Source: Tubiluchus corallicola
Lineage: Eukaryota; Animalia; Priapulida
Direction: 5' to 3'
DNA length: 64,000 nt
NCBI GenBank assembly: GCA_030141605.1
Contig: JAQGDQ010000021.1
Location: 992,001-1,056,000, forward strand
The notes below the pieces were generated by a model. The model saw only the letters and a program-made list of their open reading frames with translations, was not told the DNA's origin and searched no databases. Shown here in pieces: positions 3,688 to 42,173 of this stretch (the stretch's first letter is position 1; each line of letters opens with the position of its first letter). Made by a program: the position numbers and the translations under genes.

Positions 3688-7703
<4,016 letters not shown>

Positions 7704-10094: not shown

Positions 10095-10488
10095 ACGCCA
10101 TCACGTCTGTATTTTATTTCGATTTAATGCTTTTCTTTTGTTTTAGTGCTATAGGAATGATTATAGAACTCCAACTTGCCCAACAATTAACAAAATAAAA
10201 CAATTGTTAATTAAGCCAGGAATTTTAAATACCATTGTAAATATATTTACAATTGTGATGCGTTTTGACGATGGTAAACTTTAAACAATGTTGTAGGTTC
10301 ACAAGAACGTGCGTCGATAATATAGAAACAAACTACACCAATGTATTATTTAAGCTGAAGGTTGAGTGAGCTATTAAGAAAGCTTTGAGAAAGTACTGTC
10401 TGAAAAACATACAAGCCTAACCTTGCCAAACAATTACTTTAAAATAGTGAAAACAGATTTGAATAAACTTATTTTTAAATGATGTAAG

Positions 10489-11403
10489 ATGTGGATGGAA
10501 GTACAAAATGTTTCGGCTGATGACAGTACATTAGAAAATCCAGCACGCAAAACATCCTCATTGCAACAAATACTCGAATCGCGTGGAATAATATCGTCAA
10601 CTAGATCGTTATCAGCGCCAACAATTTTTTATGAGGATTCGCCAATTGTACCAGGAACATCAACTCCCTCTGTACACGAACTTCTTGAATCGTGCGGAAT
10701 CATAGCACCAACAAGATCCCCCGGACACAGACATTCTGCTTCGAGTGACTCCGAGTCCATGACGAAAATGCAACCTCGGCAGACCAGAAGTGAATTTATC
10801 ACCCCACTAGACCAGATACCGGTCCGTAAGAGAAGCAGTCTTACACTTGTAGGAAATGTTAGTAATTCGGAGACGTTGAAAAACTTGTATAAAATTCAAC
10901 CATCACTGACCATCGATCAAAACAAAAAAGACCGCGGGGATGTGCCAGTACTGCCTTCAAAACTAGGAAAGGAAACGTTGATAAAAGTTGCTTCACCTAA
11001 AAACAAATACTCTATAGCTCTTTCTGGGCAGTCAATGAACGCTTGTGCGACAGAGAAAGACGCGCAACAAAATTTTACTCAAACAAACACCGGTCTAGAA
11101 TTCAAAAATCCACAAACAAAGCAAACACCTATCTATTCTGATTCTATAAAATCAAAGAGTACAAAATCGCCAGAACACGAAAGGGAAATAGCAGGTCTAA
11201 ATGTCACACACGAATGCGAAAATTGTCGGCAAGAAATTTCGAACGATAGCGACATCGTAGCGACCATAAACCGAAACCTGGCGTTGAAAGAGCTAGACAG
11301 AGATGATATTCAAGTAAAAGAAGACCCAGGACAAATCACAGCACATTTAGCAGAAGTCGTATCACCACTGGAAAAGCTCCCGTCTAGAAGGCGAAAATTG
11401 TAG
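10489..11403 (+). CDS. Uncharacterised protein A (304 aa, low complexity, likely disordered); paralogue of the two downstream genes; no hydrophobic N-terminal segment seen
   Basis: Long ORF preceded by an in-frame TGA. Carries ITPLDQIPVRKRSS and ends DIVATINRNLALKEL...EVVSPLEKLPSRRRKL*, motifs shared with 14847-16030 and 21309-30868. Confidence 0.75.
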   Translation: MWMEVQNVSADDSTLENPARKTSSLQQILESRGIISSTRSLSAPTIFYEDSPIVPGTSTPSVHELLESCGIIAPTRSPGHRHSASSDSESMTKMQPRQTRSEFITPLDQIPVRKRSSLTLVGNVSNSETLKNLYKIQPSLTIDQNKKDRGDVPVLPSKLGKETLIKVASPKNKYSIALSGQSMNACATEKDAQQNFTQTNTGLEFKNPQTKQTPIYSDSIKSKSTKSPEHEREIAGLNVTHECENCRQEISNDSDIVATINRNLALKELDRDDIQVKEDPGQITAHLAEVVSPLEKLPSRRRKL

Positions 11404-13049
11404 ATGCTACTATTGAATCTAGGGGAGGGGGGTTAGCAAGTGGCGAAAATTTTCGAAATTTAGTTCATACAATATTAAAGTACTTCTAGAAATACTGCTA
11501 AAGTGACTAACAACAACGTTAGTTTTGTTTGTACAAGTTTTGCATCTTCTGGCAAATTCTTTGTCTTTAGTAATATTAATAGCTGTTATGTGCTAAATAC
11601 AATTTTATTAGACGATAATTTCACTGACGCGTGAGACGCTCCCAATTCATTTTAATTTCAAGGGAAAACCGATTTGATCGCAGCAAAAAAAGAGAGGAAA
11701 GGAGACTAAATTTGGCATAAGGTCGCGAATTTTTAATCACTTTTGTGGATAATAAAAATAATTTTCTCCGTTAAAGCCAAACTCACTCTACCTAATTTAT
11801 ATTACCTCTATTCATATATTTATAAAGCACATTGATACTCATAAAAATGAATTAAGATGATATTAAGCTGAGCCATTGGCTATTGGGAAAATGGTTCCAG
11901 ATTAATATGCATTGCAGCCTTCGGCAGGGTGGATGGATTCGCGCCTTTTACGAGCCCATGCCATCTGCTGGTGCATGCATGCTCAGATCAGAAATAAAAG
12001 TAGAAATTTAGCGAACAGTTGCCATAATCTGATAAATTTTACACTATAAACCAGTGTTCTCTTAAATGGTATCGTGAAGCTTAAGATTTGCAGGAGAGTC
12101 GACAACAGGTCACATAGATTGGTAAAAAAAGGTATGGACGGACGAAGTAAAATTGTTCAAAACACTGTTTTTGATGTGCAGTCTGTATTTTAATCATAGG
12201 TAAACATCATTTACATCATTCAAATAGTAAAAGTAAAGTCTATTCAGATGGCATCTTAGTAAAATGTTGTCTTTAACACAATTGCCTGTTCATTCAATCA
12301 GTATGATAAAACCACTATATTATCTGAAGAAGCCAAAAGCCCTAGTTCCCTACAAAATATATAGCGTCGACAAACTATAATAAACTGATAAATACAAAAC
12401 TTATTAGTAGGTGGCAGCACAAACTTAGCGGAAGAGTTTAACAGTCATTGTTTAATATGAGGGCAGTGTCTAGTAGCGCCGAATGAGAATTTAAGTTTAA
12501 AGTACAAATAATTACTAACAGCAAAGTTGACGAATTGGAAATTAAATACTAAATTGAGCTCTTAGCGACATATGGCTTCACGATCACCCAGGTTCTTAAA
12601 TTTTGTCAATATTCTTTGTGGTTGCAATTGGATTTTTCGTTAGCACTCTGATCCTTAGCGCTTTTGGTTGTCAATAAAATAACAAAAAATATGTTGTCCC
12701 TCCCTTTGTCACTAATCGAGATACAAATGAGCTGCAAGATCAGTATGAGCGGAGTGGCAAGTAAACGCAGTGAACACTGCCCGTTCGTACTTGTGGTTGT
12801 GGTAAGGTGATGACTTTTAACATCATAGTTTTTGTTACAACATCAAAAAACTTTTGTGACATATATGCAAAGAAAATATGAGAAAACGAGTTAGTGCTTA
12901 CTCATTTATGGCATTGTTCAGCTTGTTCTAGAACACAGATTGTCTATCAGCATTTATGTTCTATCTTTTATTACTGGTAACTAGAAAATTTGGAATTTGC
13001 TGCATATGAATACTTGATCTGCTAGGAACGTCCAAGAAAGAACGGCATC

Positions 13050-16030
13050 ATGGCTAAATATAAAAGTTTTTCAGTTTTAATTTCATTTTCGTGTTTCATG
13101 ATAACAGTTCACTTGGTCTTAAAGTAAGTGATATTGATTGTTTATATGAGTTTCATGAAAGAGCTAAATCGTCTACAGTATTAACCGGCATGTAAGAATT
13201 CTCAAAAAAATGTTTTTAAGTTACGTAGCACCTACAGACATCAGTATTATATCGGGTGCTGCAGAAAAAGTGCCGAAGTTTTGATCACGATAGTATAAGA
13301 AGAAAATAATGGAATCAATTCAGTATTACCAGGCTGATGTTACAGACACTTGTGTACAAACAGAAATTTTAAGTCATTTCCTTAGATTGTTTTAAATATA
13401 GAAAAGTTTTAGGTCAACAAGTTAAAAAAATAAATAACGGAAAAATGTTGTGTGTTAATATTGTTAAAATTAACTGCAAGTGCTCTATGTGCCCATCGTT
13501 TCCACTGCAAGCCAGGCGAAAGCATTTCTTCTAACACTTGACACTGTTTCTTTTTCTAAAGGGGCACTTAGTTCCAGCACTCAACTATTTTTGTCTTCAG
13601 TTCCGCTGGCTCTGTGCTGGCATTGTACACTTTCTCTTTAAGGGATTTCCAGATACCGTACCCCAGAGTATCAAGCCTCGTTTTTTGTCAAGAAATATTT
13701 ACTGGTTCTTTTATTTTTTCTGTTGATGGCCATGATGTTAATTGGTTGATTTCTGTATTTGATGTGTTCCGTGTATCAAGTATTTATACATCACTGAACA
13801 TGGCTTTCGTTTTTGTTGATGATTATAATTGACATTGTTCCGGTATTTAATTTTACAAACATGCAAAAGTTTTTCGGCCATAACTTAAAAACCACTAAAA
13901 CTATCAACTTGCGACTTTCACAGCCAAAAGTTAATGTATACAACATCATGCTGTGAAATTTCAACTTTGTAGAGTACTCGCCTCTAATTTTATTGTAGTC
14001 TAAATTTTAGCACATTTTTTTCTGCGCCATCCTATAAGACCTATGCAGGCCCACCGCTTGATTTTCATTAAAATGGCATTCATTGGATTTTTGTGAGTGA
14101 GCTTGTTTCTGAGCCGTGGGCGTCGTGGCACATCAACATCCCGAGAATGATGACTGCGACGACGACGACGACAATGATGAAGATGATCATCATCATAACG
14201 GTAACAACAGTTACAAAGATGACGAGATAACAATGATTATGTTGTTGATGACAATAACAGTAAAGACTAATTGGCTAAAGCTTTCAATTCTCCTCGCACA
14301 AGCAAGTAGTTTTTGAAGCTAATTAGGGTTAAGGTTAGTGTTAGGGCTAGGGTTAGGTATTTAAATAGTGTGAGGAATTTTAAACTCCATTATCCGTTTA
14401 CGTTATTAACAACATGTTGGTCTAATTTTTGGATGATAATGGTGATGATGGCGGTGGTGACGGTGGTGACAGTGGTGACGGCGGTAACGGCCGTAACGAA
14501 TGACTGTCCGTAATGTTAAATTAAAATGAGTTCAATGAATGTAAATCCTTGGTTGCATGATTATAAGGGTTATGAGTTACTATAGCTTGGCGTTAGTGAC
14601 ACCAACTACGCTAATAAACTAAGCTAATTCATTCAAAAGTTAAAATCGATTTAACGATAATGCAATTGAGAATCGTTTCATTGTTTTATAGGCTTTCTCG
14701 AATGGCAGGATTGTTTACCAGCTCCAATGACGAACACTCATGTGAAGTACAAACGGGTAAAATAATTTAATCTCCACATTACTTACAGTTATGACCTCAA
14801 CTTGAACTTTCCAAATAATTGAGAATATATTGATTTTATTTTATAGGTTTTCAAGTGCTATTGTCAAACGTTATGTTTCTTCTTTTCTTGGCTGTACTAT
14901 TTCGTGAAAACTTGTTTGGACGTACACGTTCTAATCGTAAAGTAACATCAACTACTCGTGCCGAATACGCAAGAATTAAAGAAGAAGAAGAATTTAATGA
15001 TTTTTATGAACACCACGAGGATTTAGATAAGCATTACATTACATTACCTACTAGAAAGTCGGAAAAAGAAATATATCAGCGTTCAGTGAAAACACAAACA
15101 GAAGACGGAGATCAAGAGAACCTCGAGAAAGACCAAGCAATTCAAGTCAACATGTCTGACACAGAAGTACAAGAAGAATCTGATTTAGAAAACAGCTTTC
15201 CAATATATTATCAAGCAGCTGATAAAATCCTTGCCAGTATGAGTCCAGTTACAGAAAATACGGAAAACCTTGGAACACGGAAGAAAGGCGAACAAGAAAA
15301 ACGGATTGAGTCATATGAAGTGGCAAAAGACCAAGACAGACCTTTTGGAAATGGGAAGTTTCTTGACCCATGGCATACAGACGCTAAACTGAAAGGCATA
15401 AACAAACTAGACACGAATTTTGAACCTTGCAAACGAACAACTTTATGGAAAACAGTTGACGTTGAAGAAACTGATAGAATGAAAACTTCCATTCCCTCAA
15501 TAAACCAGATACCAAATGAAAGAACTGGTGCCGTAAAAGTGACGATAATGATAAACAACAATTCGGTAAGCAATCCAGAGAATTTCGTCAACAAAGCAAC
15601 CAAATACATTGCGGTTCAGCCAACTACCAAAGCTCCTTCAAAGCTTTCATTCGTCAAAAAACCTGTAGACGAATGCTTTGTAACTACATCGCTTTCTCGC
15701 AAAGCAAAATCGTGCTTCAGTCGCCCTGAACATGCACCATGTGACGCACAGAAGCCTCTGTTCATGGAACCAATTAAAGAAGAACCAGATGAAGTTTGTC
15801 CATCTGATGGAGACGAACCAAATAACTTATCAAGGAATGACGACAAGACAATTTCCAACGACCTTGTAGTATTACTGAATGAGGAATTAGCAAATGCCGA
15901 CTCATATTCTTATGATAGTGAAGAATCGCACGATACAAGCGAGGAAATAGTTGTACAACAAAATGTAGACATTACAACAGATAAAGTCTTGCCTCTTCTA
16001 GATGTTCCGTCGCATAAAAGAAACTTTTAA
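13050..16030 (+). CDS. Uncharacterised protein B (440 aa; hydrophobic N-terminus, short linker, second hydrophobic segment, acidic disordered tail), 3 exons
   Basis: Exons 13050-13123 (MAKYKSFSVLISFSCFMITVHLVLK, donor gtaagt), 14692-14756 and 14847-16030; phases 2/1; 1323 nt in frame. Ends NDLVVLLNEELANAD...KVLPLLDVPSHKRNF*. Confidence 0.8.
13250..14036 (-). mobile_element. Non-autonomous Tc1/mariner deletion derivative (~790 bp) in gene B intron 1
   Basis: Imperfect TIRs tatcgggtgctgcagaaaaagtgccgaagtttt / aaattttagcacatttttttctgcgccatcctata, with TA at the ends. The minus strand near 13470-13670 reads as a broken transposase C-terminus (YGIWKSLKEKVYN..ELKTKIVECW..RLACSGNDGHIEHL). Confidence 0.85.
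14323..14357 (+). repeat. Short degenerate (TTAGGG)n telomere-like tract
   Basis: ttagggttaaggttagtgttagggctagggttagg. Confidence 0.7.
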
Positions 16031-16664
16031 CTTCTGGACCTAGAGGATAGGTTAATATTTTACTGGCTCTATTTAAGTAGGAAACGCATAACTTCTTCAC
16101 ATTACAATGACATAACTTGTTAGTAACATTGATGTACTTTTCACATTTTCTGTTCCATACTGTTCATGGAGCATTTGATTTGCTGCGGAAGAAAGCAATA
16201 AAATATTTTTTAAAGATTTCTGACCTCCAGGAAAGAAACGGTTTTTGTAAATTTTTCGAGATATTGTAAAAATGTTGTATATTTACACTTGGGACACAAA
16301 GAGACGATAGCGTTATGCTGAGCAAAAAACAATAAATAAATCTTATGTTATTGCTTCTATTATTTTTCATGCCTCGATTTTCATGACAATTATAACACGT
16401 ATTTACCGGGGCAGGACTTCGGAACTTCAGACAATTACTTCCCAATTTTAAGAGTTTAGCACAATGTAAGAAGGTCATGTATCACTTAATTGCTTATAAT
16501 AACAAAACTTATGGATTACATTTTGTGTTGCAGCAGTTAAGCATTTGCAAATCCTTTTTATTTTCCTGTTACTGTATTATGAGCGCGCATCGCAATTCTA
16601 CGTGAAACATGTAGTTCTGTGGGAGAGTTTCTGGACAACAGCCCAAATGTGAAAATCTCATATA

Positions 16665-17100
16665 GGCGTCTTAGTCTGAACGCGAACAGATCTTACTGAG
16701 TAGACTCAAACGTTATCCTATCCATCTAATCTAAATTAAACTCTAACAATCTCTCTAACAGTAGTAAAGATACGTTGGCGGATTTAGGGCTATAATCGTC
16801 CTAAGCTAGTCAGGGCTTTTCGAGTTACTGTCGGCAAGTTATTGCAACTTTCCGACATTGTTAAGAATTGATGCTGTCTAGGGTGCGCGGTAAGTTTGGT
16901 GCTAGTAAGTTCGGTACTAGTAATTTTGGAACGGCAAGGAATTTTTGGTACTGGTAAATATGGTACCAAACTCACTTGTACCAAATTTTACTACATTCAC
17001 TCTCTAGTCTGAATACGCTTGCGACTTGCGAGTTACTTGGCGAACTACTGTTAGTTTATTTCATGAGAAAAGATAGAAAACTTGCTAATCTGAACGCACC
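16665..17100. mobile_element. Fragments of the same Harbinger-like MITE family
   Basis: tagtctgaacgcg, tagtctgaatacgcttgcga and aaaacttgctaatctgaacgcacc match the TIR and subterminal motif of 50911-51223. Confidence 0.55.
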
Positions 17101-18191
17101 CTAACGTTTCTGATATGCAAGCACTAGCTGGCTACATATAAATAGTCTACAGTGATATAAAGAAGCCACACGTGGGCGTGAAATAATCACAGTTTTTTCA
17201 ATCATATTTCTAACGTTCAAGAAAACATGTTGTTTATGATGAAAATAGAGTGCGGTAAAAATGGCACAAGAAAAAATGGCAGGATAAAAATGACATACAA
17301 CATACAAAAATGTTCCTTTATTTCTGCCAAATAGGCTAGCAAAAGGCTCACAAAATATTTGCTCATTAAATGGATTTATAATCAATAATACACGAATGTT
17401 CCACATGGTGTTTATCTACTTTTTAACCATTAATTTTGGCGATGGAAATAGACAGACAAATATATTTATTTACATAGCAAGTCACCTTATAAGGTTATAC
17501 ACAACAATAAGCAAAGGTTATAGACAACGTTACACAGTTTTAATTTACAAGCGGGAACTTCTCGAAATGGAACTGGAACCAATTCGTAGTTGTTTGTCCA
17601 GGTATGGGTAACAAAAAAGAAGTACTAAATACTCCCTCGGAGACTTCCGCAAATTGCTTCACGAATATTTTTTGTACATGGTGTTCGGTCAAGTTTTCCG
17701 AAAAGATAACCGGCGAAAAGATTTCCCTATTTTGGCACCCTATATTTGCCTTTCTTCACGAAGTTTCTTGGAAATCTGTTAGGCTTACTGCCATAACAGA
17801 CAAAAACAAGCAAACAAACAGACAGACAAACAAACAAATAAACAAACTGTGTTAAAGCATGATTTCCTTGGCAGAAGTAAAATTAACTAAAATAATAATC
17901 TTCCACTGTAACCTAACCATAAACACACATTTTACTAAGTGTGCCATTTTTTCCAGTGCCAGTTTACCTACATTCGATGAAAATCAGTTCTATCTAATGG
18001 CATTGTTTTTTAGTATTTCACAGTTGTTCTAAAGAATTTGAACAGATCGAGTTAAACGAAATTTCAAACTGAACTGAAGTTGAACACGTATATTATGTTG
18101 AGACGATGATTTTTTAATAACCGCAATGTCTGTAATGTCATACACCAGTTAGTGATACGGGATTCGTTTGAAAAAAACAGCTAAAAGAATT

Positions 18192-21100
18192 ATGGATAAT
18201 CATAAAGACATTTTGATTGGAACATTATGCTTATGTTTGTTGGCGCTGCCTCGTCTTTTTAGACGGTGAGGTTAATTGCATTTTTAAATAAACTAAAATT
18301 AATTCGTAAAGTACCAATATTTTTTATTAGGATTATAGGAAAAAGTTTAAACAGTACATGTTACAGAAACGAGCACTGTAATTTTTAATTTTGTAATCAA
18401 CGGCCATTGTCTATCTCGCCATTTTGTCTGTTTCTTTTAGGTATACTGAGCAGTTCCCAAGAAATGAAACTTCTGATTCACAAGGAATGAGAGATGGTAC
18501 GTAGTGTTGTTAGTATAGTACTAATTTACTAGGACACTAAAGTACTAAATACTGACTGGTGACTAAGTACTAAGGTACTAAGTACTAAAGACACATAAAA
18601 TTACGAAGGACTAATTATCGGCTATTTCCTCAATTGACTAACTGTTATACTAATTCACTCACCCCAAATGTAGCTGTGGTGATTTTATAGAAAGTTCTTA
18701 ACATTACTTTTTTGAATGCATAAAATATGGTAGAGCCAGAGCAGCATTATTAGACGAACTAATCAACCACCAGATTGTAACACGTAAATCTTTACAAAAT
18801 GATAATCCTGCATTCTATACACAAAAGTATTTAAAAAATTCAAAACTGGTCATCAATCTTGCTATATTCCACACAATTTACAATAGCAGTTTATTAAATA
18901 AATCTCTCGCTTTACAATACAATAGAAATTTACTATAAGACGATTACTCAGCAACTTTGCAATGCATCTTATTATTGCTGTTGTTATTTAAATGTTGTTT
19001 TTGCGAATTAACATGCAAAACTGTTCACGTATACACCAAACTGTATTTGAGCCACGTATTTGATCTAATGAAGTGTTAGTTTGGTTGTAACGCCCATTAT
19101 TCTTTTAGTAGTACCTTGCGCTTAGCATTTGCACCGTGAAGATACTTGTATCAGACACAGTCTGTATTGTAAATTCACTTTAAACAAATAAAGTTTAAAC
19201 TAATTCACTGATTAATAAAACCCACTGGCTGGCCTGCCTTTGTCATTCTCTGACTTACAAAGTCACGAACTGATTAGGGCCCGGATTCAAGTATCGTGCT
19301 GGAAACCAGCTTTGTGCGTGAGAACGATTTACGCATGCTTAAGGATGTAGTTGCAAATCACATGTAGCAATTTAGCGATTAAGGTGTAACTCACGTGTCC
19401 ACGAAGGAAGGTGCGCAAGTTAAGTGCATTTTAAGTGCTATCCTCGATGCCTAAAACTGCCGTAGAAACGCGCGTAAAGTTACGAGTGGTCGGGAGTACT
19501 CCTAAGTCTGTTTTAGCGACGCAACCCGTGTTGACTTCCACATTATTTACAACTGCATTAAAAGGGATTATACACTTTTCTAATTCATAAAAAGAGTAGC
19601 AGCACCAGCAGTACTGCAGTAGTAGAGGTAGTAGTAGCGGAGGTAGTGCTGGTGGTAGTCCAGGCGGTGGCGGTGATGACGGTCTGACAACATCCTGTAC
19701 GTAGTCGTCACAAATTCTGCTGTTACGATAGTCACTTGGTCATGCATCATGGCAGCTCTGCTAAATCCCCCGTCATAGCCCAAACATACGAAAGTGGCTG
19801 GCAGAAGTAAAGTTTGTCATTTGCTTTTCATTCAAATTGATCACTATAATTCAAGCATTAAGGATAGGCAATTAGAGTTAGTTCGTCGTAAGCATAACAG
19901 TACTGTTCTTTAGCATCCATACAATGCAAGCGGGACTATTAAGCAACAAAATTTCAAGGTAAACAAAATAAATAAACCAGAGACAATTACAGAATAACTG
20001 CACCACAGTCGCTCTCTCTTCCTCTTTTTCACCCTCACTCTCTTCTCTCTTTCACCCTCTTTCTCGCACTCACTTACCCATCTCTACTCTCTGTCCACTT
20101 TTCGTGCTTTCTTTTCTGCGATTTTTTTTGTTTATATCAGCAGTGAATGCTCCGCAATAATTTGCACTAGACAGAATGTAAATGAAGTTATATTTCCAAT
20201 CGTGTTGGAATAATATATCGTGTTAGTATAATATATTGTTACATAGTATGTTATATTGCCACTACAGCGCTACAAAGTTACACAAGATACCTCAGAAAGC
20301 CCGTAAAAATTTCCCTCGCATATTATGAATGAAAACGCATTTAATGCAGAAGCAAAATTAATTTGACCAAAAACAACTGATAGTGTTATTATTGGTGCTA
20401 TAGCAACAGAATTATTTCCTGCGTTCAAATCGTAGGATTCTCTGTGTAAGCGACCCTTACGAATGTTATGTCGAGGCTCGCGAAAACCGCGACCACAGAG
20501 AACATTTTTGCAAGCGGTGATTCGTTAGTTTGCAATTTCAATTGCGCAAGGTTTAGGAGCCATACACTAAAACGTGCGTACGTGTAGCTAAAGATCGCAA
20601 ATCTCAAGACAGATACGTGAATTCGCTGGGCAAACGTGCATAAGCTTCTCACACGCAAACACACTTACGACAGAAAGCAAAACGTGCTTACGCAAACCTT
20701 AAGACAGATACGTGAATTCGCTGGGCAAACGTGCATAAGCTTCTCACACGCAAACACACTTACGACAGAAAGCAAAACGTGCTTACGCAAACCTTAAGAC
20801 AGATACGTGAATTCGCTGGGCAAACGTGCATAAGCGTCTCACACGCAAACATCCGTTTCGTAGGCAAGATTGGTGAACCACCATAAGTGACTAACTGACA
20901 TAACCGGCTGATTCATTCATTGTCTAGCTAACTCTCAAAATGACTGACTGCCTGACTGAGGTTAGTTTAGCTACTGACTGGCCGATCGACCAACCGACCG
21001 ACAGATTGATTGCCACTGTAACTGATTGACTGACCAAGAAAACCGTCTAACCAAACTGACTGACTAGCTGATTAGCCTAGTTACTTTCTAACTGACTGTT

Positions 21101-24100
21101 CTTCCGACTGAACTGCCTAAGTCACTGGCTAATTTGTATACCGAGTAACTCAAGTACTGACTGGTGATTGTTTGACTGAATCACTACCTAACTGAACAAT
21201 TGATTGACCAATTTAATCTTAACCTTTCTCTTCAAGAGTATTTTGAAAATGTCTGTATTATTATCAACTGTGCATTCTTTCTACAATGTCATTATTTGTG
21301 TGTTTCAGGGAATCAAGTATTTGATTACTCGCACATACCGCTTCTATTATTTCTGGTTACAATTTTTCGAAGACGTCTTTTTGGTCAACTGAATACCGAC
21401 CAGAAAGGCACACAAACGCCTATAGACCCTTGCTCGAATCAAAGAGACAATCAAAGTGTCAGACGTGGGGAAATGTCTGCTCGACCAACTGGCCGCTTTG
21501 ATCAGTCTAATAACGTCACGCATGCGCAAACCTCAGTAAGAAGAACACGTGATTACTGCAGAACAAAGTATGCTGGGATTGAAACAGTAGACAATGAAAC
21601 CCCTTCCCAGACATTTGCTGATTGCAAAGCAACAAGCAATCACAGAACATGTAGCAATGACGTCTGTGAATTAAATAATGTAGACAAGCATAACGTTGTT
21701 GATGCACATGATTCACAATATTCTGAATTTAGAAAAATTGCGCGTCCACCAATGTTGAGAAAAACGTGTGTTGATCAATACAATGAATGTAATAAAATTG
21801 TTGAAAAAATGACAGTATGCAACCAGAATAACAGCAAAGATGAAGCAAATGAATTTTTGCCCTGTACTCACACTCAGTCATGTGACGAAAGAATTTTTTT
21901 TGAAACTTCTGATTGCCCTTCCTACAGCAAACTGCAGAGCCGATCTCTTGCAACAACTATTCCGGATGACTCAGTTTTTACAGACTCAACCGTCATATCT
22001 GATGAAGACAGATTTTCAGATGTTAGTTTCAGACAAACTAACACTGACACTGATGCATCAAGCAAACAGTTTTGTCTGTCACCTATTCAAAATATTCCTC
22101 TACGAAAGCGTAGCTCAGTACCAAGTGGTGGGAATGCTGATTTCATTTCAACAACGAGCTTGTCAAACTACAAAGATTCATCAACACAAGACGATTCGTA
22201 TGAAGTTGTAAATGATCTCGTAGATTTGCTAACTAGCGGTGACGAATTTCAAATGTCTGCAGGTTATGGAAGCCATGTTGAGAAAACTACATCTTGTGAG
22301 GATGGATTAGTAGAATGCCCAGAACTTACTGAAAATAGTGAAAATTCCACGGCTATAATCCCAAACAAAGAACTTGTGCGTTTCTTTGATAGCATAACCC
22401 CATTACAGGAATCACCAGTGGTGGTCCCACGCGACAACGTAATTTATGAAAATGCAAATGAAATTAAACGTGAAAATTCAGGCGTCACGGTAACAAAAAG
22501 CACAGAAATCAGAACTAGGCCGACACCACACAGTAGTCACAAGAACACTGATGATCTGCTGACAGTTTCTTTAGAAAACAACAAACAGATGTCAGAATAC
22601 TGTTATCCTGTAAGTTCAAATAATCCGTTGAAAGGTAAACATTTAACAGAAACATGTGTATATACTGTACAAATACCGCAGGTAAACTGTATGTCAGATC
22701 TAAGACCAAGAAACCCCCAAAATCGAACTTTTCTCATTGCTACATCTGGCCTTGCTGGTGATTGTCCAAACACAAATTCATCGGCCATGCCACATATTAA
22801 AAGTGATGGTGCTCAAAACACAAACAATGTAAGCAAAGCTGATATGCTTGAAACAAAACTCCAGGATGATTCTGCTTTCTTCAAAGAACGCATAACACAA
22901 GCGAATGCAACGTCGACGCCTGTAAAATCACACGCACAAGCCACTCGGACACTGCTAGACATTAGTCCAACTTCTAGTCAAATAATGCAATTTGACAAGA
23001 GTTTAGTAGTGAACTTGCCAATTTCTCCTTGCTTCAGTGACACCAGCACCAATATTTTACCTTCCACTGAAAACAAGAAGATACTGTTGCAAACAGCGGC
23101 ACAACTTGAACGGGAAACCTTACAAAATTCGTCCCTTTTAAAAGATAGACAGGTTATTGGCGATACAGTGACGTCAATAAATGAAAAACTCGCCGAAGAG
23201 GAAGTCAAATCTTACAGCAACGAATTAAAAGTGAAAACTGTCTTTGTTGTAACAAAAGAGTGTAGCAATGCTGATACGTTAAACTTGCAAGACATATTCA
23301 CTGTATCTCCTCTTAACACAGTTCCACTGCACAAACGAATTACCGACGTTAAAGAGAACGTAACAGAAAACAACAATTACAGTACAGAGATACATGAAGG
23401 AATGGCAAACCAAAACAATGCCACGGGCTCCAATATGCAGGCAGAACAAATGTCCAAAACTTTAAAAAATGTTAAAACTGTTGTGATGAAGAGTAGTGAC
23501 GAATCATCTCACACGTCATTCAGTCAGAAAAGGAGAAGCTTTCAAGATGACTTTAAACAGAATACGGTCACAAGTGCTGGGCAGACGCATACACAAATTC
23601 AAGAAGACGATGGAACAACTTCCCTAGGTAAAGCAGAAGGAAGAGAAATGATGAGTAAAGCGTCTCCCAAAACTCAAAGGGCATTGAGCAGTAACATCTC
23701 AACAGCAGCAACGCAAAAACCACTGCTGCACAAGCTCAGTAACAGTAATGCTGCCAGTTCTAAAAGTGAAAGTACAAAAACTGATTCTAAACCAGCAGCA
23801 TCAGTAAGTACTTTTGCAGATGAGATCCTTGTACGTGAGCAACGAATTAAGAGCAATCAGAACCAAACATTGCAGAATGCTGTGGCATCCAGTTTAAAAG
23901 AGATTCATGAGCTGCACAGAATTGTGTCGCTAACAGAAAAGGTGCCAATTAAAAATTCAAAAAATTTAGTAAACATTAGCAACATTCGTACAACAAATGT
24001 TCTCTTGAAGTCACCCTTGCAACAGAAAGACCGTCCTTGTGGTACGTCTAGTATTCCAATATCATTATCAAAAACATCAATAACTATGCGTGCAAATGAA

Positions 24101-27100
24101 CAACCTGAACAAAACACAGGCAATAAAAAAGACGTAGTTGTAATAATAAATGAACGATTAGCTGAGGAAGAATTGTGCATTTATTCGTTCACACAAGATA
24201 AGTTCATTTCAGAGAACTTGTTAAAAACTTGTAAATATAGAAATATAGTGATGCCTCTTCCAAGAGTACCTTCGCACCACCGAATGACAAGTCCTGATTT
24301 GTGCAAAACAAAAAATAGTCTTGCCACTTTAAAAACAATAAGTTCGACTTTTATTGAAGAGCATAGTACAAATCCAGGAAAATGGGAACAGGACTCTCCT
24401 TACTACAATGATGGGCTATTGTATGATTTAAGTGAAAGTGATGCAGATCAGAATATCGCTGACCATCCAGAAGCGAAAAGTGCAGATGCTGTTTCACTTA
24501 TAAATGAAGAACTGGCAGAAAAAGAGCTATGTTTTTACAATGTACCAATTCTCGCAGCAAATTTTTGTCAAACTATTACGGTGTTGTATGACGAAACTAA
24601 CATTGTAGCACCACTTGAAGAACTTCCTTCACATAACAGAAATAAACACGTATTAGAAAGGAAAGCAACTGCTGATTTGGAGGTTGACGATAATGAAGCA
24701 TCTAGTGCAAAAGCAAGTGCTCAAGTTTACAGTGATTATGAGCACAAATACGTTACAATTTTAAAACATGTTCCGGCTCATGATAGGCATAACGCCCATC
24801 AACCAAAAAAGACAGTAAGTTTTAGTGGTCACGAAGAAATTTACGAAGCTGAAATAGCGCAAAATTTTTTACCTAAAAATGATCATAACCGACTTGAAGA
24901 GAAAGTTACGTCCGAAACAGAACAGGAAAACATCACAGAATTTCTGAGTTCTCCTGTGGGTAGTGATGATGAAACTGATCTACCTGTGACAAATTGTCAA
25001 AAAATGCATGTGCGTCGCCAGCAAAGAAAAATGCCGCGAAATAACATTGACAGTTCGGTTTCAAAAAGAGATTCTGATAACAAAGTGGATTCAAATCTGT
25101 GCAGTTTTCTTCATAAGAAAATTGTGTCTAGTTGTTTAAGGTCTTCAAACGTTCACTCAAATGTTGAAAAATCAGATAAGAAAGAAATGCTTAGTGAGCA
25201 AAAGCCTATTAGACCTAAAAGCAACTTGCGCATTAGGCAATATGTTGATTCTAAAGAAAAGAAGAATGATGTCAGTAGCACCAGTAGCAGCAATAACAAT
25301 AAAATATTCAACCAGGAAGAAAGTTCTTACCAAATTGAGTATAGCCCAAAGTCTGATGCAGAAGAAATATATGTACATGTAACACCATATAAGCGCCAAC
25401 AAGAAACATGGGAAAATGCTTGTCACTGCTGCAATATTTCAGTAGCACCAGATGTAACTAAACAACGAGAGTTTCATCAACAATATTATAAAGATGACAT
25501 GTTATTAGCAGCTAAAAATATTCAGCCACTCAAAAGGAGTACAAGTATGCCAGTAATTAAAGACGAGATTGCTTTATCTGGATACGCTCATCTATTCAAA
25601 AGGGAGAAGGCAACAGCAGAAAAAGGTTCTGGTGATGGAGAAACTGATACAGATGTAGATGTGGAGCCACTTGCAGATGTACCATTGCACAAACGTAGTG
25701 AAGTGTCTCCTAGCGAAAAAGATACCGGTTTAGATTCAAGTACGATAAGCAGGAAAGACAGTGGAGATAGCTGTGCAAATTTTAAAGAGTTGCACCTTGT
25801 GAAATCGCCCACTCCATTAAGAATGGATATTCCAAATAGTTGTTCTCTGGAAAACAGCAATTTTTTATCTTCAGTGAAGCAGTTACATGAAGGTAATGCG
25901 CCAAAGGACAAAGATAGTGACAGACTATTGCAAGTTGATGTTGCTGTGAACAAATTGAGCGATAAAAAACTGCAAGATACACATCGCAACAGATTATCAT
26001 CTGCAACATTGGCAAAATCTTTTGATCAGGAAACTGACAGGAAAAAAGTTGATTCAGACGAGAAAATTAGAGTAACAAAAAACCTAGAATCGCAAACCGT
26101 AAAAGATAGTCTTGGTAATTCAGCACCTTTACTAAATGATACGACGATAAAGGATCAACAGTTACTGCGAGATGCTAAATGTAATATGTTAGAAACAGAA
26201 AACAATCTATTAGATGCAAACAGCACTCACAAAAATCAGACTGAGCCACGGTGCTTCGTAGATTCTTCAAATTTTACAACATTCATAGAAAATGAAATTC
26301 AAGTTGGCGTGAAAGATGGCGTGTCTGTGTTGAATAAAGTTTTAGAAATGGAGGAGTTGCACCTAGAGAATGACAGTATTGAGAGCCAAAGTAGCTCAAG
26401 TGACTCAGAAAACGTTAAATCAAACGTGGAAGCGAACGAATTAAATAAAGTGGTGGTGACGCCACTCATAATTCCTCGACTGAAAAAACAACATAATGAC
26501 AACAATGCCGCCACTAAAACAGAATCACGTGAAAGACTTCAGGGAAAATTTTGTGGAGGCGATGTATGTTCGTTTGGCAAAGCTACACAAAGTTTATACA
26601 AAAGTGGCTCATCAAAAGGCTTGCATCAAACTTCAAAGCTGTTACAACAAATAAAAAAAGACATATATTTTACTGAAAACCCAGCTTTTGGAGGCGACAA
26701 TAATTTAACAAGCTCTTCTGGTACAGTACCGCCTTGGAATAATGTTACATGTCAAACCAGCGTCGTCAACAATGAAACTGAATTAGTGGATGAAAGTGCA
26801 TCAGTTCTGAGAAACAAAACTCATCCATTAACAAACAAATATATTGATTACATGGAAATTTCCACACATAAACCAGATGTAAACTCAGAAAATGTTAACT
26901 CCGCAGAAACGAAGGTCGACAAAATAACTTCTGCTAGTTGCAAGAGCATGGAGCAAAAAAGAGGTGATTCTAATTGTGAACAACAATTAACAACAAATTT
27001 TACAGTATCAGACGAATATCCTCAAACAACTGGCTCCAAGGCAGATAAAGAAAGTGTTCAATCTACAAAAGAAAGGAGAAGTAAAAAGGATTTTGACTTT

Positions 27101-30100
27101 CAAGGTGATCATCCGTTTATTTCTAATTCAGGTATTTTAGCAGACCAAACACAGTCATTTGACTCTACTGAAAGAAATTGCAAAGAAATCAGTAGGGATC
27201 TAATGTCCACCGACTCTGCTACAAGAATAGATGCAACGCAAGTCCATGATGTCAAATCTAAAGGAATACAGTGCACTGATGACATAGTAGCTACAATAAA
27301 TGAAATACTATCAGAAGAGAACCTACAGCTCTTGGATAAGAAATATTCTGTCAGACTAAATGAAGAAAATATTTTCGAAATAAATGGAAGTGATAATGAT
27401 TCGGCAGGCAACAAATCCGATATCAACTTTGCAGAGAACTTTCGAATTAATAATGGAAGTTCTTTTAGTGGATCAAGTTCAGAGCTAACACAAATAGAAA
27501 AGGAAAAAGTTGTCAAAATGCATAAAACTATTGACAGTGATTCAACAGGCCACCATAACGAAAATTTGTGCTGCACAGAAAACGAATTCGCCAATGAACA
27601 AAACGCTATTGGGGCAGAAGAAGTCTTGTATCATTCACAGTTAGAGTCAGCCGCCATTGTGAAACCTTTAACGAAAGTTCCTTCCCACATGAAAGGTCTT
27701 ACGTTACCATTAGCATATGCAGAAAACAGAAGTAAAGCAATTGATACAGCAATAGTAACAGTGGATAGTAAGAAACTTTCAAAAAGCAGTAACGAAGAAA
27801 TGCTCAAAGGAAATTTTGATTTAAATGATGACGCACAACCATTAAAACGAATTCCATCTCACACTCGCAGTTCGGCATTATCAATAGAAATGGAAAACCC
27901 AGATAAAACATTTATTCAAAAAGGCATGAAAGTGGACAATGAAACCAATTTTTTAACCAACAGGCGGCAAGTAGCACATCAACAAGTTTTACATCTAAAT
28001 GAAGTAGCAAATCCTTTAAAACAATCACCAACTGTCAATCACAGCAACAATGCAGTGCAGCAAATAAAAAACAAGATAATTGCTGATTCAAGGCAGAGTG
28101 TGCACATTATGGAAGAAGTCTCAGAAAACAGTAAAAGCGTGGTCCAGGGAGACTTTAGCAGAAATAACGTGGTAAAGCCGCTAATGCAACTTCCTTGCCG
28201 CACACACAGTCTTCCATCTCTAACTCACCAGGCAACGGTTGTACAAGAGAAAGACGAGACAAATGCCGAAAAAACCAAAATTGCAGATAATAACTGTGGT
28301 TTGGCAACTAATAGCAAAGAAGAAGCAAACCAAGAAATAGCTGGCTCGAATGAAGTGGCAGAACCTTTAAAAACTATTCCTTCTCACACACGTAGTATGA
28401 CATCATCAATAGACTTACATTACAAAATGCCAACTGCTGACAAAAACCAGAAGGTGAGCACCACAAAAGAAATCTCAAACAACAACGAAAAATTGTGCAA
28501 AGAAGAGTGTGACCGAAATTACTCGGTAAGACCTCTAAAGCAAATTCCTTCGCGTACACGTAGCTTGACATCGCTAACAGGGATACATTATAAAGACAAG
28601 GACATTCTTAAAGCAAGCAATACAATAGATGCCAAAAATGTGAGTCAGCTGCAAGAAATTGGTGGCAAAAATACCCAAACAAAACCTCTAAGAAACGTCC
28701 CTTTGCGTTCACGCAGTTTAACATCAAAAATAGATGAGATGGCCAGAAAAACGAAAGCTGAAATCGCAGACAGAAAGTTAGTCTCACAAGCTGGAAACTT
28801 GTTTAATAATGTACGAAAATGTCAGTCACAAATTTTAGCAACATTTTTAAACGAAACGAAAAGCTGGTCGAATGTTGGCTTAACTGCATCTTCAACTGTA
28901 CCGCTAATAGACGATAAATCAATGAGAAAGAAAACGAAATGTGAAGATATGAAAACAAAAATATCAACGTCGGGTAACACAGATACAGCTGATATTGATA
29001 AATCACCAAAGACCTTGGCTATTCAACCTCAGACTTTGTCAGTGCTAGCAAATGAAAGACGGTATGTCCAGTCAGATGCTAAAGTTAATCGGAAACAAAG
29101 TATGAAAGATGATCTTCACGAATGTTGTAATAAAGAAACCAAATTACAGACCGAGACACATTTAACTGCACAGGTGAAAATAACACAAGATGTTCCTTCA
29201 TTAGTAGCTAACGAAACAATGCATTCAACACAGAAAGAAATAGGTGTGACAGACAAAAGTTCTTTTTTTGGATTCGAGCCAACAAAGCCAGTTCAGCTGA
29301 CAATGAACACTGAGAGTTCAGATTATGATATAACAAGCGAAAGTGTCACATCAGAAGACGAATTAGCATCAAAAAGTTATTTAGGTATTAATTTAGTTAA
29401 ACCCTTAGAAAAAGTCCCAGCTCACACCAGGCATATGACTCGGCCAGCATCAGAAAAAGCACACAAAATTGAAGCAGTAACTGACAGTAACGCAGCCGAG
29501 TTGGAAGTTGAAAAACCAATTTTAAGAAAGTGCCACGCTTATACAAGCTCAGATCCTGAAAATCAGAATACCATAAATGCAATTTCTAGACAAGTAACAA
29601 AGTCTTCATCTGAGCTTCAAGTACCAACTTTAGAGAGCCCTGATCATTATTCTAATAGAAACAAAGATGAAACAACCCAAAATGGGAACCATTTTAATAC
29701 CTTCGCTTATGCTCGGATTCAGACTGTTCAGTTAAGTACTAAAATAAATGAATGCACAAATAAAACAGCTTGTGGTACAAATAGTGACCTTTTAGAAGAT
29801 ACCACGAACCCAGAAGATAATTTCCAACACGAGCGAAAGGTACAGAATGCCGTAAATGAAACAGACTTGCTAAATGAACCATTAAACAGTGAAGACCTTG
29901 CTTATTCGTCTAATGAAGGTCTTGTTTCTGACACAGACGAATGTCCACCTGATCAAGAAAAAGCTGAATTCGAGGAAGCTGTGACGCCACTAAAGAAATT
30001 TCCCTCCCACACTCGGCAAGTAGAAGCACATCATGTAAAAGAGGACAATGTTGATGTTGCCAATACCGCTGAACTAAGCGAAGACCATTCTACTAAAATT

Positions 30101-30868
30101 GACTTAACTATTTTTGCAATTACCTCCTCTGATGATGAACACATTTCGTATTATGACAACGGTTCCACACAGTCGTCATCACCCCGTGAAGACTATGACG
30201 TTGCAAGTAGCGACAGCAATAAAAGAGCAACAAGAAAAAGAAACATCCACAACGCTACCGAAAGAGCTTCTGACGAAATGCAGCTGTCATGTCATAGCAT
30301 AAGGCAACTGGACTATGTGGATTTATACACAAAAAACAATATTGATCTTGCCAGAAGACAGAATGATACGCCTATTAACGTTAGTCATGGAAATTATGAT
30401 GATATTGTGTTTAACAGTATGTTGCACTTTCCAACAAATTTGGCTACAACGTCGTGTTCATTGACAGAAAAATATGCAACTAACGTTATAGGCAACAATA
30501 ACAAACTAAAAAACCAACAATACATCGCAGATGAAAAGTCCAGTTTAGCAAGTGGCCCAAGAAAGGACTCGGTAATAAATGACACTTGCGAGAGGTGTGC
30601 TATTAAAGACAACGAGAGAAAATTGAAAACAGAAGCACGTACAGACATAAACATTTCGTCGTTCATTAATCAAAGGTTGACAGAAGACGAGTCACATTCC
30701 GTGTCCAACAGTGATACCCGGGACAAACATCAGACAAAAGAACGCGACACAGAAACACAATTTAACACGGCACCAGCAGCTCAAGAGCGAGTGCAATCAA
30801 GCGAGGTCGTCCCACTAATAAGAAAATTACCATCACGTAAACGAAAAGCTGCTTTTTTACAATCTTGA
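18192..30868 (+). CDS. Uncharacterised giant protein C (3229 aa; two N-terminal hydrophobic segments, then ~3150 aa S/T/N/E/K-rich disordered tail with a repeated motif), 3 exons
   Basis: Exons 18192-18265 (MDNHKDILIGTLCLCLLALPRLFRR, donor gtgag), 18441-18496 and 21309-30868 (9560 nt, open); phases 2/1; 9690 nt in frame. Exon 3 starts GNQVFDYSHIPLLLFLVTIFRRRLFG, homologous to gene B GFQVLLSNVMFLLFLAVLFRENLFG. Confidence 0.88.
20606..20851. repeat. 95-bp tandem repeat, ~2.6 near-identical copies, in gene C intron 2
   Basis: Unit aagacagatacgtgaattcgctgggcaaacg... starts at 20606, 20701 and 20796. Confidence 0.95.
20888..21210. repeat. Degenerate (TGAC)n tetranucleotide repeat
   Basis: Recurrent tgactgac/ctaactgac tracts. 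Confidence 0.7.
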
Positions 30869-31337: not shown

Positions 31338-34300
31338 TGATCATATATATCTATATGATCAATACTCAAAATTCTATGGCGTTCTAATTACGGTTGCAAA
31401 TTTTTTTTAAGCGAAACAAATGTATAAATTACACTTTATTATCCTATTTAAGGCATATTATGATCCAATTAAGTGTTTAAACGTATGACACAATTTCACT
31501 CCCCCCCCCACACGTGTTGACTGAAACACATGGAGCTCAATACTTGTGGTGACTGAATGTTTTTTATATAAAAATTACTAATACCGTTGTCGACAATTTT
31601 TCAGCAAAAGTGCTGCCGGCAATTTGCACCTATTGGTCCATGGTTAGGAAAATGTCTTTTGAAGAAGTTAAGATACATAGGGCCTATTTGGCGCAGTTGG
31701 TCGGATGTTGAAGATTTCTATATTATATGATGTTATATTATATATTACAAGCAGCCTATATTATATGATGACGTCACACGTTTTGTACGACATTCTACTG
31801 CAGTTGCTACAGTAACACACCACAAACAGTTTCACTTTGGAACAGTAAAGAATGATCCTAAAAACGACGCGTGTAGTAATCACTCATAAGCATTAGCATC
31901 ATGACTGCATATAAACTGTCACCATATCATTCACTTCGTAGTATGTTTTGTCCGCTGTGACAGTCAAATGACCTTAGACATCCGTTCCGTTTGTCTCCTT
32001 ATTTCACGATTCCCAAGACCTAACAATCATTTTAGTGAATTTTTTTCTAGGGACAGGCAAACAAAAACTTTTAATAACACAATACAGGTCAAAAGTAAAC
32101 AAGACTTTTTTGTGTGCCTATGTACCAAATTTTGTTTGCATAAAAGATTTTTACACATCAAGCTGTTGAAAAGAAACAATGTGTAGAATCTTTGCAATGT
32201 CATGTTAGCGCGATAAAAAAAACCAATGAATGTTGAATTTTGGGACTGCTCAAAGTTCTATGCACAAGATTATGTATGTTAAGCAAGAGCAACAGGTCAG
32301 CCAGTCCTTTAAAAGATTCCTTTGTTACTCACTAATTAAAAACAATTCCATTTGTTTGTTTCATTCTCGAAAAGGAATCTACTTTATTCTGCATTTGTGG
32401 TTTAATGTTGTTTTGTGGGTACAAGTTGTATCTGTAGCTCCTTTTAGGTGTAACTCTTCTGAGGAATCAAAATCTATAAGTGACGAGCCCAATCGTAATC
32501 TCTTAAAAAGGCACTGCTACAGGTAACTGCTTGAAGGTTCTACACGCACATAGGTTATGTACGCTAAGCTAGAGCAACAGGTCAACTTGTAGTTCTTTCG
32601 TTTATACCTTTTACAAATATTAATTTATTGGATGTTGCCTTGACAGTTTTTCTACTCTTACATTGACTTAGTGATATTAGTCCTTGGTGGAAGATCCAAT
32701 GAAATTGCAAATCAGCAATTGTGTCCAAGCTGCTATGGCCACCACACCAAATCTATTTACTTTTCTTAATTGAATAAGTAAGTTTTTTGTGCAGGCACAC
32801 TCGAATCTTTTGAACATTACCAACACCCAATGATCTTCCAGTCTCGTTACTTTGTTATAACCACTTTCAACAATTCGTTATTATCGCAAGAAACGAGGCG
32901 TGTTCAGCGTGAGCAGAGTATTACATTTTTTTTTCGTGGCGTGATTTGGAATCAAGCAATTTCATTATTTACCAGCAGTTCTGCCGCCTGGCGTACACGC
33001 GGCCCACATTCTAGACTGGGTCAACAGAACAAACAATAATTATTACATCCCAACAGAGAACGTCTTTATCAGAAAGCTGGATGCGGATGTGCACGCATAC
33101 GCACTTGCGTGTCAGTGTCGCTTACGTAGCATACTTGCGTGTTTTGTGAGCTTAGTCTAAAAATGTCAGTTGGTGAAAGTCATCTAGACTGACATTGACT
33201 GCATAACAATAATTACCACCACCAGCATGATTTGTGGAAAGAGATTCAGATGTGTTTACTAGACGAAAGACGTTTTTATTACAAAACAATTTGTTTATAC
33301 GCGCAATACATGGGTACATAAGGTACATCAAACTTTCACATGAAAACAATCTCACAGCGTCCAAGTAAACTAATTTAATAAATACCTATAATAATAATAA
33401 TAATTATAGACTTCGCTGATTTCTATAATATAATTACGTTGTTAACACAAGCCCCCATAGAGCTAAGTGGATAATCTACGGATTTTGGCATTTCACAGTA
33501 CTGTATAATTTTATCACGCACCACTTACAGTTTTCATGTCTGCGTGTCCAGTATTACAACTCACGTTTTGTAGTACCAAGAGATTTGGTTGTAAATGAAA
33601 TTAATTTTGTAATTCTGAATAATTATCACCAGGACTTAATTCAAATAAAACTAATTTACTTACAGTAGGAGCAGCAGTAAACAATTTTAGATAGCACTAA
33701 TCATTAATATTCAGCAGTATTTACTACAAAAAGAAAAGAACATTTAGCGACTTAATTCCGATCTACATTGTAAACAAGACAAAGTTTACGGTTTCACATG
33801 ACCAATTAATTTTCGTTAAAATAGGTCGATATTATAAAGTATAATTATAGGCCAAATTTTCACGGCTTGAAAGTGACACTGTACTGCAAAATCTACACTT
33901 AATTACGAAAAGCACAAAGCAATTAATGTTAATTAAGGGGCTGCATTAAATCTAAAGTCTAATAAATAGCTTTGGATTCCCTGTAGCTAATTTATAGCTC
34001 GACACTGTAATTCCATTATCTCACTTTCTACATGTAATATTACATAGAACGCAGTTGTGAAATAGACATAAAATAAACTTAAAATAGGCCTAACCTTAAT
34101 TGAAGAAGTATTTTTGTGGAGAGAAACAAAGTCTGATAATTTGGATTATTTAAACTATCTACAGTAGGCAGTATTGTTTATTTCTATGCGGACAGATTCG
34201 GATATCGCTGAAAGCAGAGAGTACAAAACACAAAGCATTTACTAAAAAAATGGTTTCTCAGCCTCTTGTCAAGTGCATTTACACAGAAAAACCTCAAAGA

Positions 34301-34345: not shown

Positions 34346-42173
<7,828 letters not shown>

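Follow-up and report, generated by a model that had tools for sequence, protein, structure and literature searches.

The 64,000-nucleotide stretch of the priapulid Tubiluchus corallicola analyzed here (GenBank assembly GCA_030141605.1, contig JAQGDQ010000021.1, forward-strand positions 992,001 to 1,056,000; hereafter the window, to which all coordinates refer) carries three co-oriented genes, A, B, and C, which, judging from sequence, are tandem paralogues encoding predicted-disordered proteins with a common two-part motif. At the end of each of the three proteins stands the motif D-[IV]-V-x-x-I-N-E-x-L-A, predicted to be helical, and 33–50 residues beyond it P-L-x-x-[VIL]-P-x-[HR]-x-R (hereafter the PL motif); the family has no name in the libraries searched. 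We put at about even the chance that these proteins are multivalent scaffolds, each module of which would make a two-point contact with one folded partner protein.

The two-part motif

In its fuller form, the helix consensus D-[IV]-V-x-x-I-N-E-x-L-A-E-E-E-L has seven strict copies (one in A, one in B, and five in C), and the PL consensus V-x-P-L-x-x-[VIL]-P-[SL]-[HR]-x-R has 16 (two, one, and 13, respectively). Beyond these there are three degenerate PL copies and the terminal copy of C, which is shifted in register by one residue and followed by six further residues; the statement of the initial annotation that all three genes end in the same module thus stands for the strings, which are present, and needs correcting for this last copy. 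The Asn of the helix motif is invariant, and the most invariant PL residues are P0, L1, and P5. The helix motif carries a net charge of −1 to −4, the PL motif being basic.

The motif is clearly repeated: a strict search with P[LIV]xx[VILF]P[SLAVTC][HR] finds it 2, 1, and 13 times in A, B, and C versus at most 1 in 1000 shuffles per protein, a comparison originally proposed as a check and one that the motif passes; the proline-rich control P0004, a neighboring protein, contains one chance match. The pattern [IL]N[EQR]xL[ATES] is found 1, 1, and 5 times versus shuffle maxima of 1, 1, and 2, and is absent from P0004. Because these search patterns were derived from A, B, and C themselves, the motif was also examined in two ways that avoid circularity. 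Scores with each copy left out in turn exceed 0 for 16/16 PL and 7/7 helix copies, several of them being low (1.7–8 bits), and a profile built from the rows of C alone detects A at 33 bits, B at 28 bits, and P0005, a database protein described below, at 31 bits, so that the likeness across genes is not circular. The search for paralogues covered the window, within which profile matches fall in A, B, and C only. Over seven consecutive codons of the helix motif, A and C2041 have six identical residues, encoded by DNA that differs at synonymous sites.

The two halves are also coupled. A PL motif stands 33–50 residues downstream of six of the seven strict helix copies, with the seventh at 123; within C the figure is 4/5 (P = 5e-4), and two degenerate helices of C keep the same spacing to PL. 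On the PL side, 10 of the 17 copies counted are without a helix motif at that distance upstream (33–50 residues), although one of the 10 does have a degenerate helix; the PL half is therefore probably able to bind alone. Copy numbers of about 2, 1, and 16–18, as first proposed, are right for the PL half; full two-part modules number 1 in A, 1 in B, and 4–7 in C.

All copies lie on the + strand. The terminal module of A spans 11251..11400 (helix 11266, PL 11365), and an earlier PL copy of the RKRSS subtype lies at 10804..10839 (residue 108 of the open reading frame, ORF). The latter is the reciprocal best match of the first PL motif of C, at 22082..22117 (residue 303), which recovers the RKRSS-type copy already noted as common to A and C. 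Two copies of a motif seen in A only, [IL]-L-E-S-x-G-I-I (ORF residues 30 and 67), lie within 10555..10730; a looser version of it was found in none of B, C, and P0005. The single module of B occupies 15860..16027 (helix 15875, PL 15992). In C there are three full modules within 23162..24650 (helix/PL 23177/23309, 24146/24254, and 24500/24611); a degenerate PL at 24770, a lone PL at 25667, and a degenerate module at 26330/26462, together within 24770..26500; a helix at 27296 and, downstream of it, seven PL units arrayed in tandem at 27665, 27839, 28013 (degenerate), 28178, 28364, 28532, and 28685, within 27281..28726; and, within 29402..30865, a PL at 29402, a module with a degenerate helix at 29867/29987, and the terminal module at 30665/30812. 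The last PL copy of C is closest to the last of A, with C-E-x-C preceding both last modules; given also the reciprocal match of their first copies, A resembles the two ends of the tail of C. Units of the array are spaced 51–62 residues apart, and five of the seven are mutually 52–68% identical in DNA, so that the PL copy number of C may reflect amplification. Tuning of valency, as suggested, is not demonstrated by these counts.

Gene models

The models reproduce exactly the sizes first given for three co-oriented genes (304, 440, and 3229 aa). All are on the + strand, with GT-AG introns throughout and no internal stops. Gene A is an ATG-initiated ORF at 10489..11403 without a hydrophobic segment; its 5' end is provisional, and its codon score is 0.156 in frame versus a non-coding maximum of −0.115. 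Gene B comprises exon 1 at 13050..13123, encoding a first hydrophobic helix that is predicted to be a signal peptide or signal anchor (gene model, hydropathy, and AF2 of P0005), exon 2 at 14692..14756, encoding a short loop (gene model and P0005 alignment), and exon 3 at 14847..16030, encoding a second hydrophobic helix and then a predicted disordered tail (gene model, hydropathy, and AF2). Gene C has a predicted exon 1 at 18192..18265 (first hydrophobic segment; gene model and likeness to B), a predicted exon 2 at 18441..18496 (short loop with an N-x-T sequon; gene model), and an exon 3 at 21309..30868, a 9.56-kb open frame encoding a short second hydrophobic segment followed by ~3150 aa that are predicted to be disordered and are net acidic. 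The exon phases, 2 and then 1, are common to B and C. The three-exon model of B is borne out by P0005, the protein of a relative, while that of C is a prediction based on paralogy to B and on a frame open over 3186 codons, for which the chance expectation is ~1e-99.

An exon 1 upstream of A was sought and none was found. A 64-nt candidate for an extra 5' exon of A, at 10297–10360 (+), fits in phase, but its codon usage is of non-coding type and its acceptor is weak. The size and starting phase of this segment resemble those of exon 2 of B and C, and it could be what decay has left of a former membrane anchor.

Two sequencing runs were compared with the window. Run X1 was read as DNA: it reaches introns and intergenic stretches, and no GT-AG joint is seen among the 15 of 28 joints listed. 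Only four short repeat-like pieces of run X2 match the stretch. A high-copy repeat with a summed X1 depth of 200–420 occupies 17237–18570, upstream of exon 1 of C, and the second intron of C holds three tandem copies of a 95-nt unit (20596–20880), in whose bin X1 depth falls to 0.5.

Predicted membrane segments, disorder, and LC8-type sites

The first 70 residues of B and C have a common layout, two hydrophobic segments flanking a loop of ~20 residues, with basic residues after the second segment. The two N-termini align with a score of 59, equaled by 0/2000 shuffles (BLAST E 7e-5), and this, together with the like exon phases, runs counter to the initial impression that the genes cannot be aligned outside the motifs. 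Hydropathy is 2.2–2.7 for the segments of B and 1.5–2.2 for those of C, and A is without an N-terminal hydrophobic anchor, in agreement with the proposal of membrane-anchored forms in B and C; A may be a soluble form, as was also proposed.

The proteins had been taken to be disordered, and prediction concurs: FoldIndex is below 0 across 63–74% of each, and AF2 of P0005, a weak model in that it used a two-sequence alignment, gives pLDDT <50 for 357 of 428 residues, the folded part being the two N-terminal helices only. A single module is modeled as a helix (5–25) plus an extended PL part (pLDDT 76–77, pTM 0.36), with no compact fold. The net charge is acidic in B (−19) and in C (−69).

Two candidate LC8-binding sites, one with a TQT and one with an IQV anchor, lie at 15083..15160 (+) in B and are invariant in P0005. 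By an ad hoc pattern, B and P0005 have two sites each versus 0.1 expected, C has one versus 1.1 expected by chance, and A has none. B and P0005 both present the sequence features of an LC8 client: a TQT-type anchor with suitable residues on either side lies within a disordered region. The TQT site of B fits the flank rules given in one study, in which a hydrogen-bonding residue stands at −4 and an acidic one at +2 (PMC6607443), and binding of LC8 by B is plausible. Counts of PP1 RVxF, B56, SxIP, PxIxIT, and LxVP motifs are at the level of chance in whole-protein shuffles. C does contain a textbook PP1-docking-type K-x-V-x-F site at 24806–24826 (+), one of three such sites versus 2.2 expected, and thus not an enrichment.

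Conservation in a relative

P0005 is an unnamed Logan protein of 428 aa on a 1724-nt contig, and belongs to a single-member cluster without annotation. With 72% identity to the exon-3 ORF of B over 99% of that ORF, it is the only relative found among 1685 candidates, and is the orthologue of B. It carries the exon-1, exon-2, and exon-3 sequence of B in one frame, with start, stop, and both motif halves alike. Since the first intron of B alone measures 1568 nt, P0005 most likely represents the spliced mRNA of some related species, the alternative being an intronless copy.

Between B and P0005, motif residues are identical at 22/23 positions versus 22/33 for the linker (Fisher p = 0.01), and selection on the motif is evident in this comparison. 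It had been proposed that only the docking module is under selection. This cannot be maintained for B, as other blocks are equally conserved in P0005: 17 of the first 18 residues are identical, as are 21/21 of the second hydrophobic helix, 7/7 and 10/10 of the LC8-type sites, and 10/10 of a further decapeptide. A conserved central block of 60 residues (265–324; 15500..15679, +), not common to A or C, is likewise identical at 22/22 and 34/36 positions.

Run X1, from a different individual or haplotype, differs from the window at 5 of 4670 coding bases versus 21 of 1149 non-coding bases, as counted in the 8 longest of 673 contigs. Ten of the 12 indel rows are non-coding, and the remaining two sum to an in-frame 3 nt. 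Among 40 of the 77 substitution rows, five are coding.

Distribution and named families

Against 1.84 billion representatives, the module profile returns P0005 as its only true match, plus one false positive. The latter, P0006 (E 1e-6), was rejected as a relative; it is a bacterial FliK whose near-identical tandem repeats sum weak scores, and with the C-only profile it falls to E 56. A multi-module protein like C would score hundreds of bits, and none is present among these representatives. A single-module relative at paralogue-level divergence would fall at E 0.004–0.3, beyond the search cut-off. The original description of the family as lineage-specific thus stands for a paralogous family of multi-module proteins and does not extend to single-module relatives, which would escape detection; restriction to a narrow lineage is likely, and in part demonstrated.

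The absence of a named domain, as first reported, is upheld. Pfam-A yields no family for P0001–P0003 at E 0.1, the curated cut-off being reached by none, and for 13 sub-stretches at E 10 gives only sub-threshold matches of 9.6–15.2 bits. NCBIfam yields no family for P0001–P0003 and P0005, and PDB sequences give no match for A or B at E 1. A metagenome scan with B produced 118 pattern matches, of which none was confirmed. The ESM Atlas returned no usable match for P0005 or for C 23000–26599, a result that speaks neither for absence nor for novelty. Literature searches of an open-access library for motif spellings, the concept, and the synteny returned no relevant paper.

Several known systems resemble these proteins in part. 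AKAP1/Spoonbill and POM121 are membrane-anchored disordered scaffolds, and we compare them in manner of working only: an N-terminal anchor (in B and C), a long disordered chain, helical plus extended docking motifs, and fast change outside these motifs are common to all, whereas there is no sequence similarity, and no KH/Tudor domain or FG repeats are seen in A, B, or C. The RII-binding helix of AKAPs, which we take to consist of three small/aliphatic pairs, is matched by 0/7 helix copies, the invariant Asn falling in the middle pair. Adaptors of the LAT/PAG1 type combine a tiny ectodomain with a membrane helix, an unstructured tail, and repeated docking sites, and the predicted layout of B and C, with a possible ectodomain of ~20 residues, would be similar; unlike these, the present proteins have a motif that is not tyrosine-based, two hydrophobic segments, a tail of up to 3,100 residues, and an invertebrate host. 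For tyrosine-based SH2 motifs, the PL consensus has no Tyr, and one is found only at a flanking position in 4/7 helix copies.

WH2, tau/MAP2, and the ESCRT MIM1/MIM2 ligands also pair a helix with an extended L-x-x-V(-P) element, repeated in a disordered chain, but the linker in A, B, and C is much longer and the tail of the V-P element is basic rather than acidic. The presumed WH2 pattern, an amphipathic helix followed within ~4–9 residues by L-[KR]-x-[VT], is found in 0/7 copies, and there is no WH2 Pfam match. The tau/MAP2 repeat, presumably 31–32 residues with KxGS and PGGG, has both of these elements absent from our consensus. What we take to be the ESCRT-III MIM2 core, [LVI]-P-x-[VL]-P, is present in 1/17 PL copies, too few for the assignment. 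Multivalent LC8 clients, such as ASCIZ, GKAP, and KANK1 (PMC6607443), resemble B in its two close LC8-type sites within a disordered region, the difference being that the repeat which defines the present family is not of LC8 type. It appears, then, that no family tried can claim these proteins, save for the LC8-client sequence features of B.

Proposed mechanism and alternatives

In their build the proteins correspond to a disordered scaffold with many binding sites: hydrophobic and basic residues are kept invariant within a net-acidic chain that otherwise changes fast, an auxiliary helix is coupled to them, and two of the three proteins have a membrane anchor. The first half of the module is predicted to be a short acidic amphipathic helix. 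The second half is likely an extended strand, inserting P-L and V-P into hydrophobic pockets and placing H/R-x-R on an acidic patch. B and C are likely anchored in a membrane through the N-terminal helix pair (or through a single membrane helix after a signal peptide), their tails lying in the cytosol. LC8 would dimerize B just inside the membrane, and C, as a tether of 3,100 residues, would collect many partner molecules, with A serving as a soluble form or a competitor. Copies in which Ser/Thr comes after the basic residues could be tuned by basophilic kinases. The steps of binding, topology, LC8 engagement, and phosphorylation are ones that we infer.

A number of observations weigh against this scheme. 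Conservation rests on two sequences, there being only one outside relative. No relatives of A or C were found: fragments of C below 1776 aa gave 0/7991 scored candidates, and the word-index search left out A and full-length C (1776–5650 aa). Counting X1 polymorphism in the longest contigs favors conserved DNA, and three of the five coding substitutions are non-synonymous. No partner emerged from a comparison with 14 known motif patterns, none of which fits more than 4/17 PL copies or any of the seven helix copies. The second hydrophobic segment of C is marginal (Kyte-Doolittle 1.53 over 15 residues), and arginines come after both hydrophobic segments of C, which puts the topology in doubt. The IQV sequence is one that we presume to be an LC8 anchor variant. 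In the available portion of PMC6607443 it has no occurrence, and many TQT peptides are reported there to fail to bind LC8.

Among the alternatives, an unlikely one is direct attachment of the modules to a cytoskeletal polymer, whether microtubule or actin, as in tau/MAP2 or WH2 proteins, with B and C tethering membrane to filaments. Such a role would suit a basic extended motif set in an array at 51–62-residue intervals alongside LC8-type sites, and a helix followed by L-x-x-V is similar to the anatomy of WH2; a tau construct with four repeats, which the profile matches weakly (E 0.031), points the same way. That match, however, is the sum of four matches of 3–4 bits in the helix half only. 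The module stretches have no tubulin-binding or WH2 Pfam match even at E 10, the WH2 pattern fails in every helix copy, the 33–50-residue spacing far exceeds that of WH2, and B and C are net acidic.

Somewhat more doubtful is the idea that a basophilic kinase of the NDR/LATS or AKT class takes the PL motif as an extended substrate or pseudosubstrate, which would make these proteins membrane-anchored kinase sinks or inhibitors. Counted from motif position +12, most copies have H/R at −5 and R at −3, as in the NDR/LATS consensus HxRxxS/T (PMC4320110). Complete LATS-type sites are found in 4/17 copies and AKT-type sites in 2/17, and A and B both terminate at +11, one residue short of the acceptor position. 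The acceptor is missing, though, from 11/17 copies, and all but one of the six complete sites belong to the amplified array or its surroundings, so that these five are not independent. The most invariant residues, P0, L1, and P5, fall outside the kinase consensus, and the helix half is left unexplained. More speculative still is a bipartite docking motif of a new kind for a conserved signaling enzyme, with the helix at a remote site and the PL strand in the substrate groove of a basophilic kinase, such that the terminal copies of A and B would be pseudosubstrate inhibitors and the amplified copies of C true substrates.

The halves might instead stick to each other, acidic helix to basic strand, and so cross-link the proteins into a condensate or structural matrix without a separate folded partner. 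The opposite charges of helix and PL motif and the many copies in a disordered chain would allow this; it is nonetheless improbable, as invariant prolines, an invariant Asn, and fixed spacing suggest a shaped binding site, PL copies outnumber helices by ~2:1, and the AF2 model of a single module is not compact. The slim chance that gene and internal duplication left the repeats behind as relics, with B functional and the extra copies of C, and perhaps A, drifting or unexpressed, draws on the outside relative known for B only, the three PL and two helix copies of C that are degenerate, and the recent tandem amplification, but it is at odds with linkers diverged beyond alignment around motif positions kept in all three genes, with the openness and low polymorphism of the 9.6-kb exon of C, and with the coding-type codon usage of A.

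Genomic neighborhood

The window is AT-rich (GC 30–40%). The cluster lies between the gene for neuroendocrine protein 7B2 on the + strand and, on the − strand, a gene with EGF domains and Tyr/Pro repeats and a C2-domain gene. The 7B2 gene (~5081–7703, +) has at least four coding exons and a Pfam Secretogranin_V match; a search with one of its exons gave 114 relatives among 132 candidates, all at ≤81% identity, the named ones being from arthropods, rotifers, and bryozoans. Summed scores lean slightly toward arthropods, and the host is accordingly of protostome type. As no 7B2 relative exceeds 81% identity, the host lineage is evidently poorly sampled. The gene at 34346–38659 (−) has at least three EGF domains (38414–38659, 36945–37250) and a last exon with 461 codons of ~15-residue Tyr/Pro/Lys/Glu repeats of 45-nt period. 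By its likeness to EGF- and Tyr-rich adhesives, the product seems to be a secreted protein of cuticle or adhesive type. The multi-exon gene at ~51900–57000 (−) has a Pfam C2 match only, and resembles Tollip. Downstream of C, exon-like segments with good splice sites at 32449–32523 and 32783–33036 (+), flanked by copies of a 33-nt element (32267, 32552), are possibly a further small gene without the module motif.

Significance

Invertebrates commonly have disordered protein families of narrow distribution. In the one described here, ~20 copies of a motif over three diverged paralogues, fixed in a relative, provide a ready alignment of a putative binding site that is new to the libraries searched, and if the partner is a conserved hub, a new docking motif would be added to the catalogue. 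Were the bipartite kinase-docking proposal true, one cluster would encode soluble, monovalent-membrane, and ~17-valent-membrane regulators of a single kinase. With a conserved hub as partner, the cluster would also constitute a natural series of 1, 2, and ~17 copies for the effects of valency and membrane anchoring on scaffold output, and it presents a 3,200-residue protein that appears to have grown from a family of ~300–450 residues by internal motif duplication within one exon.

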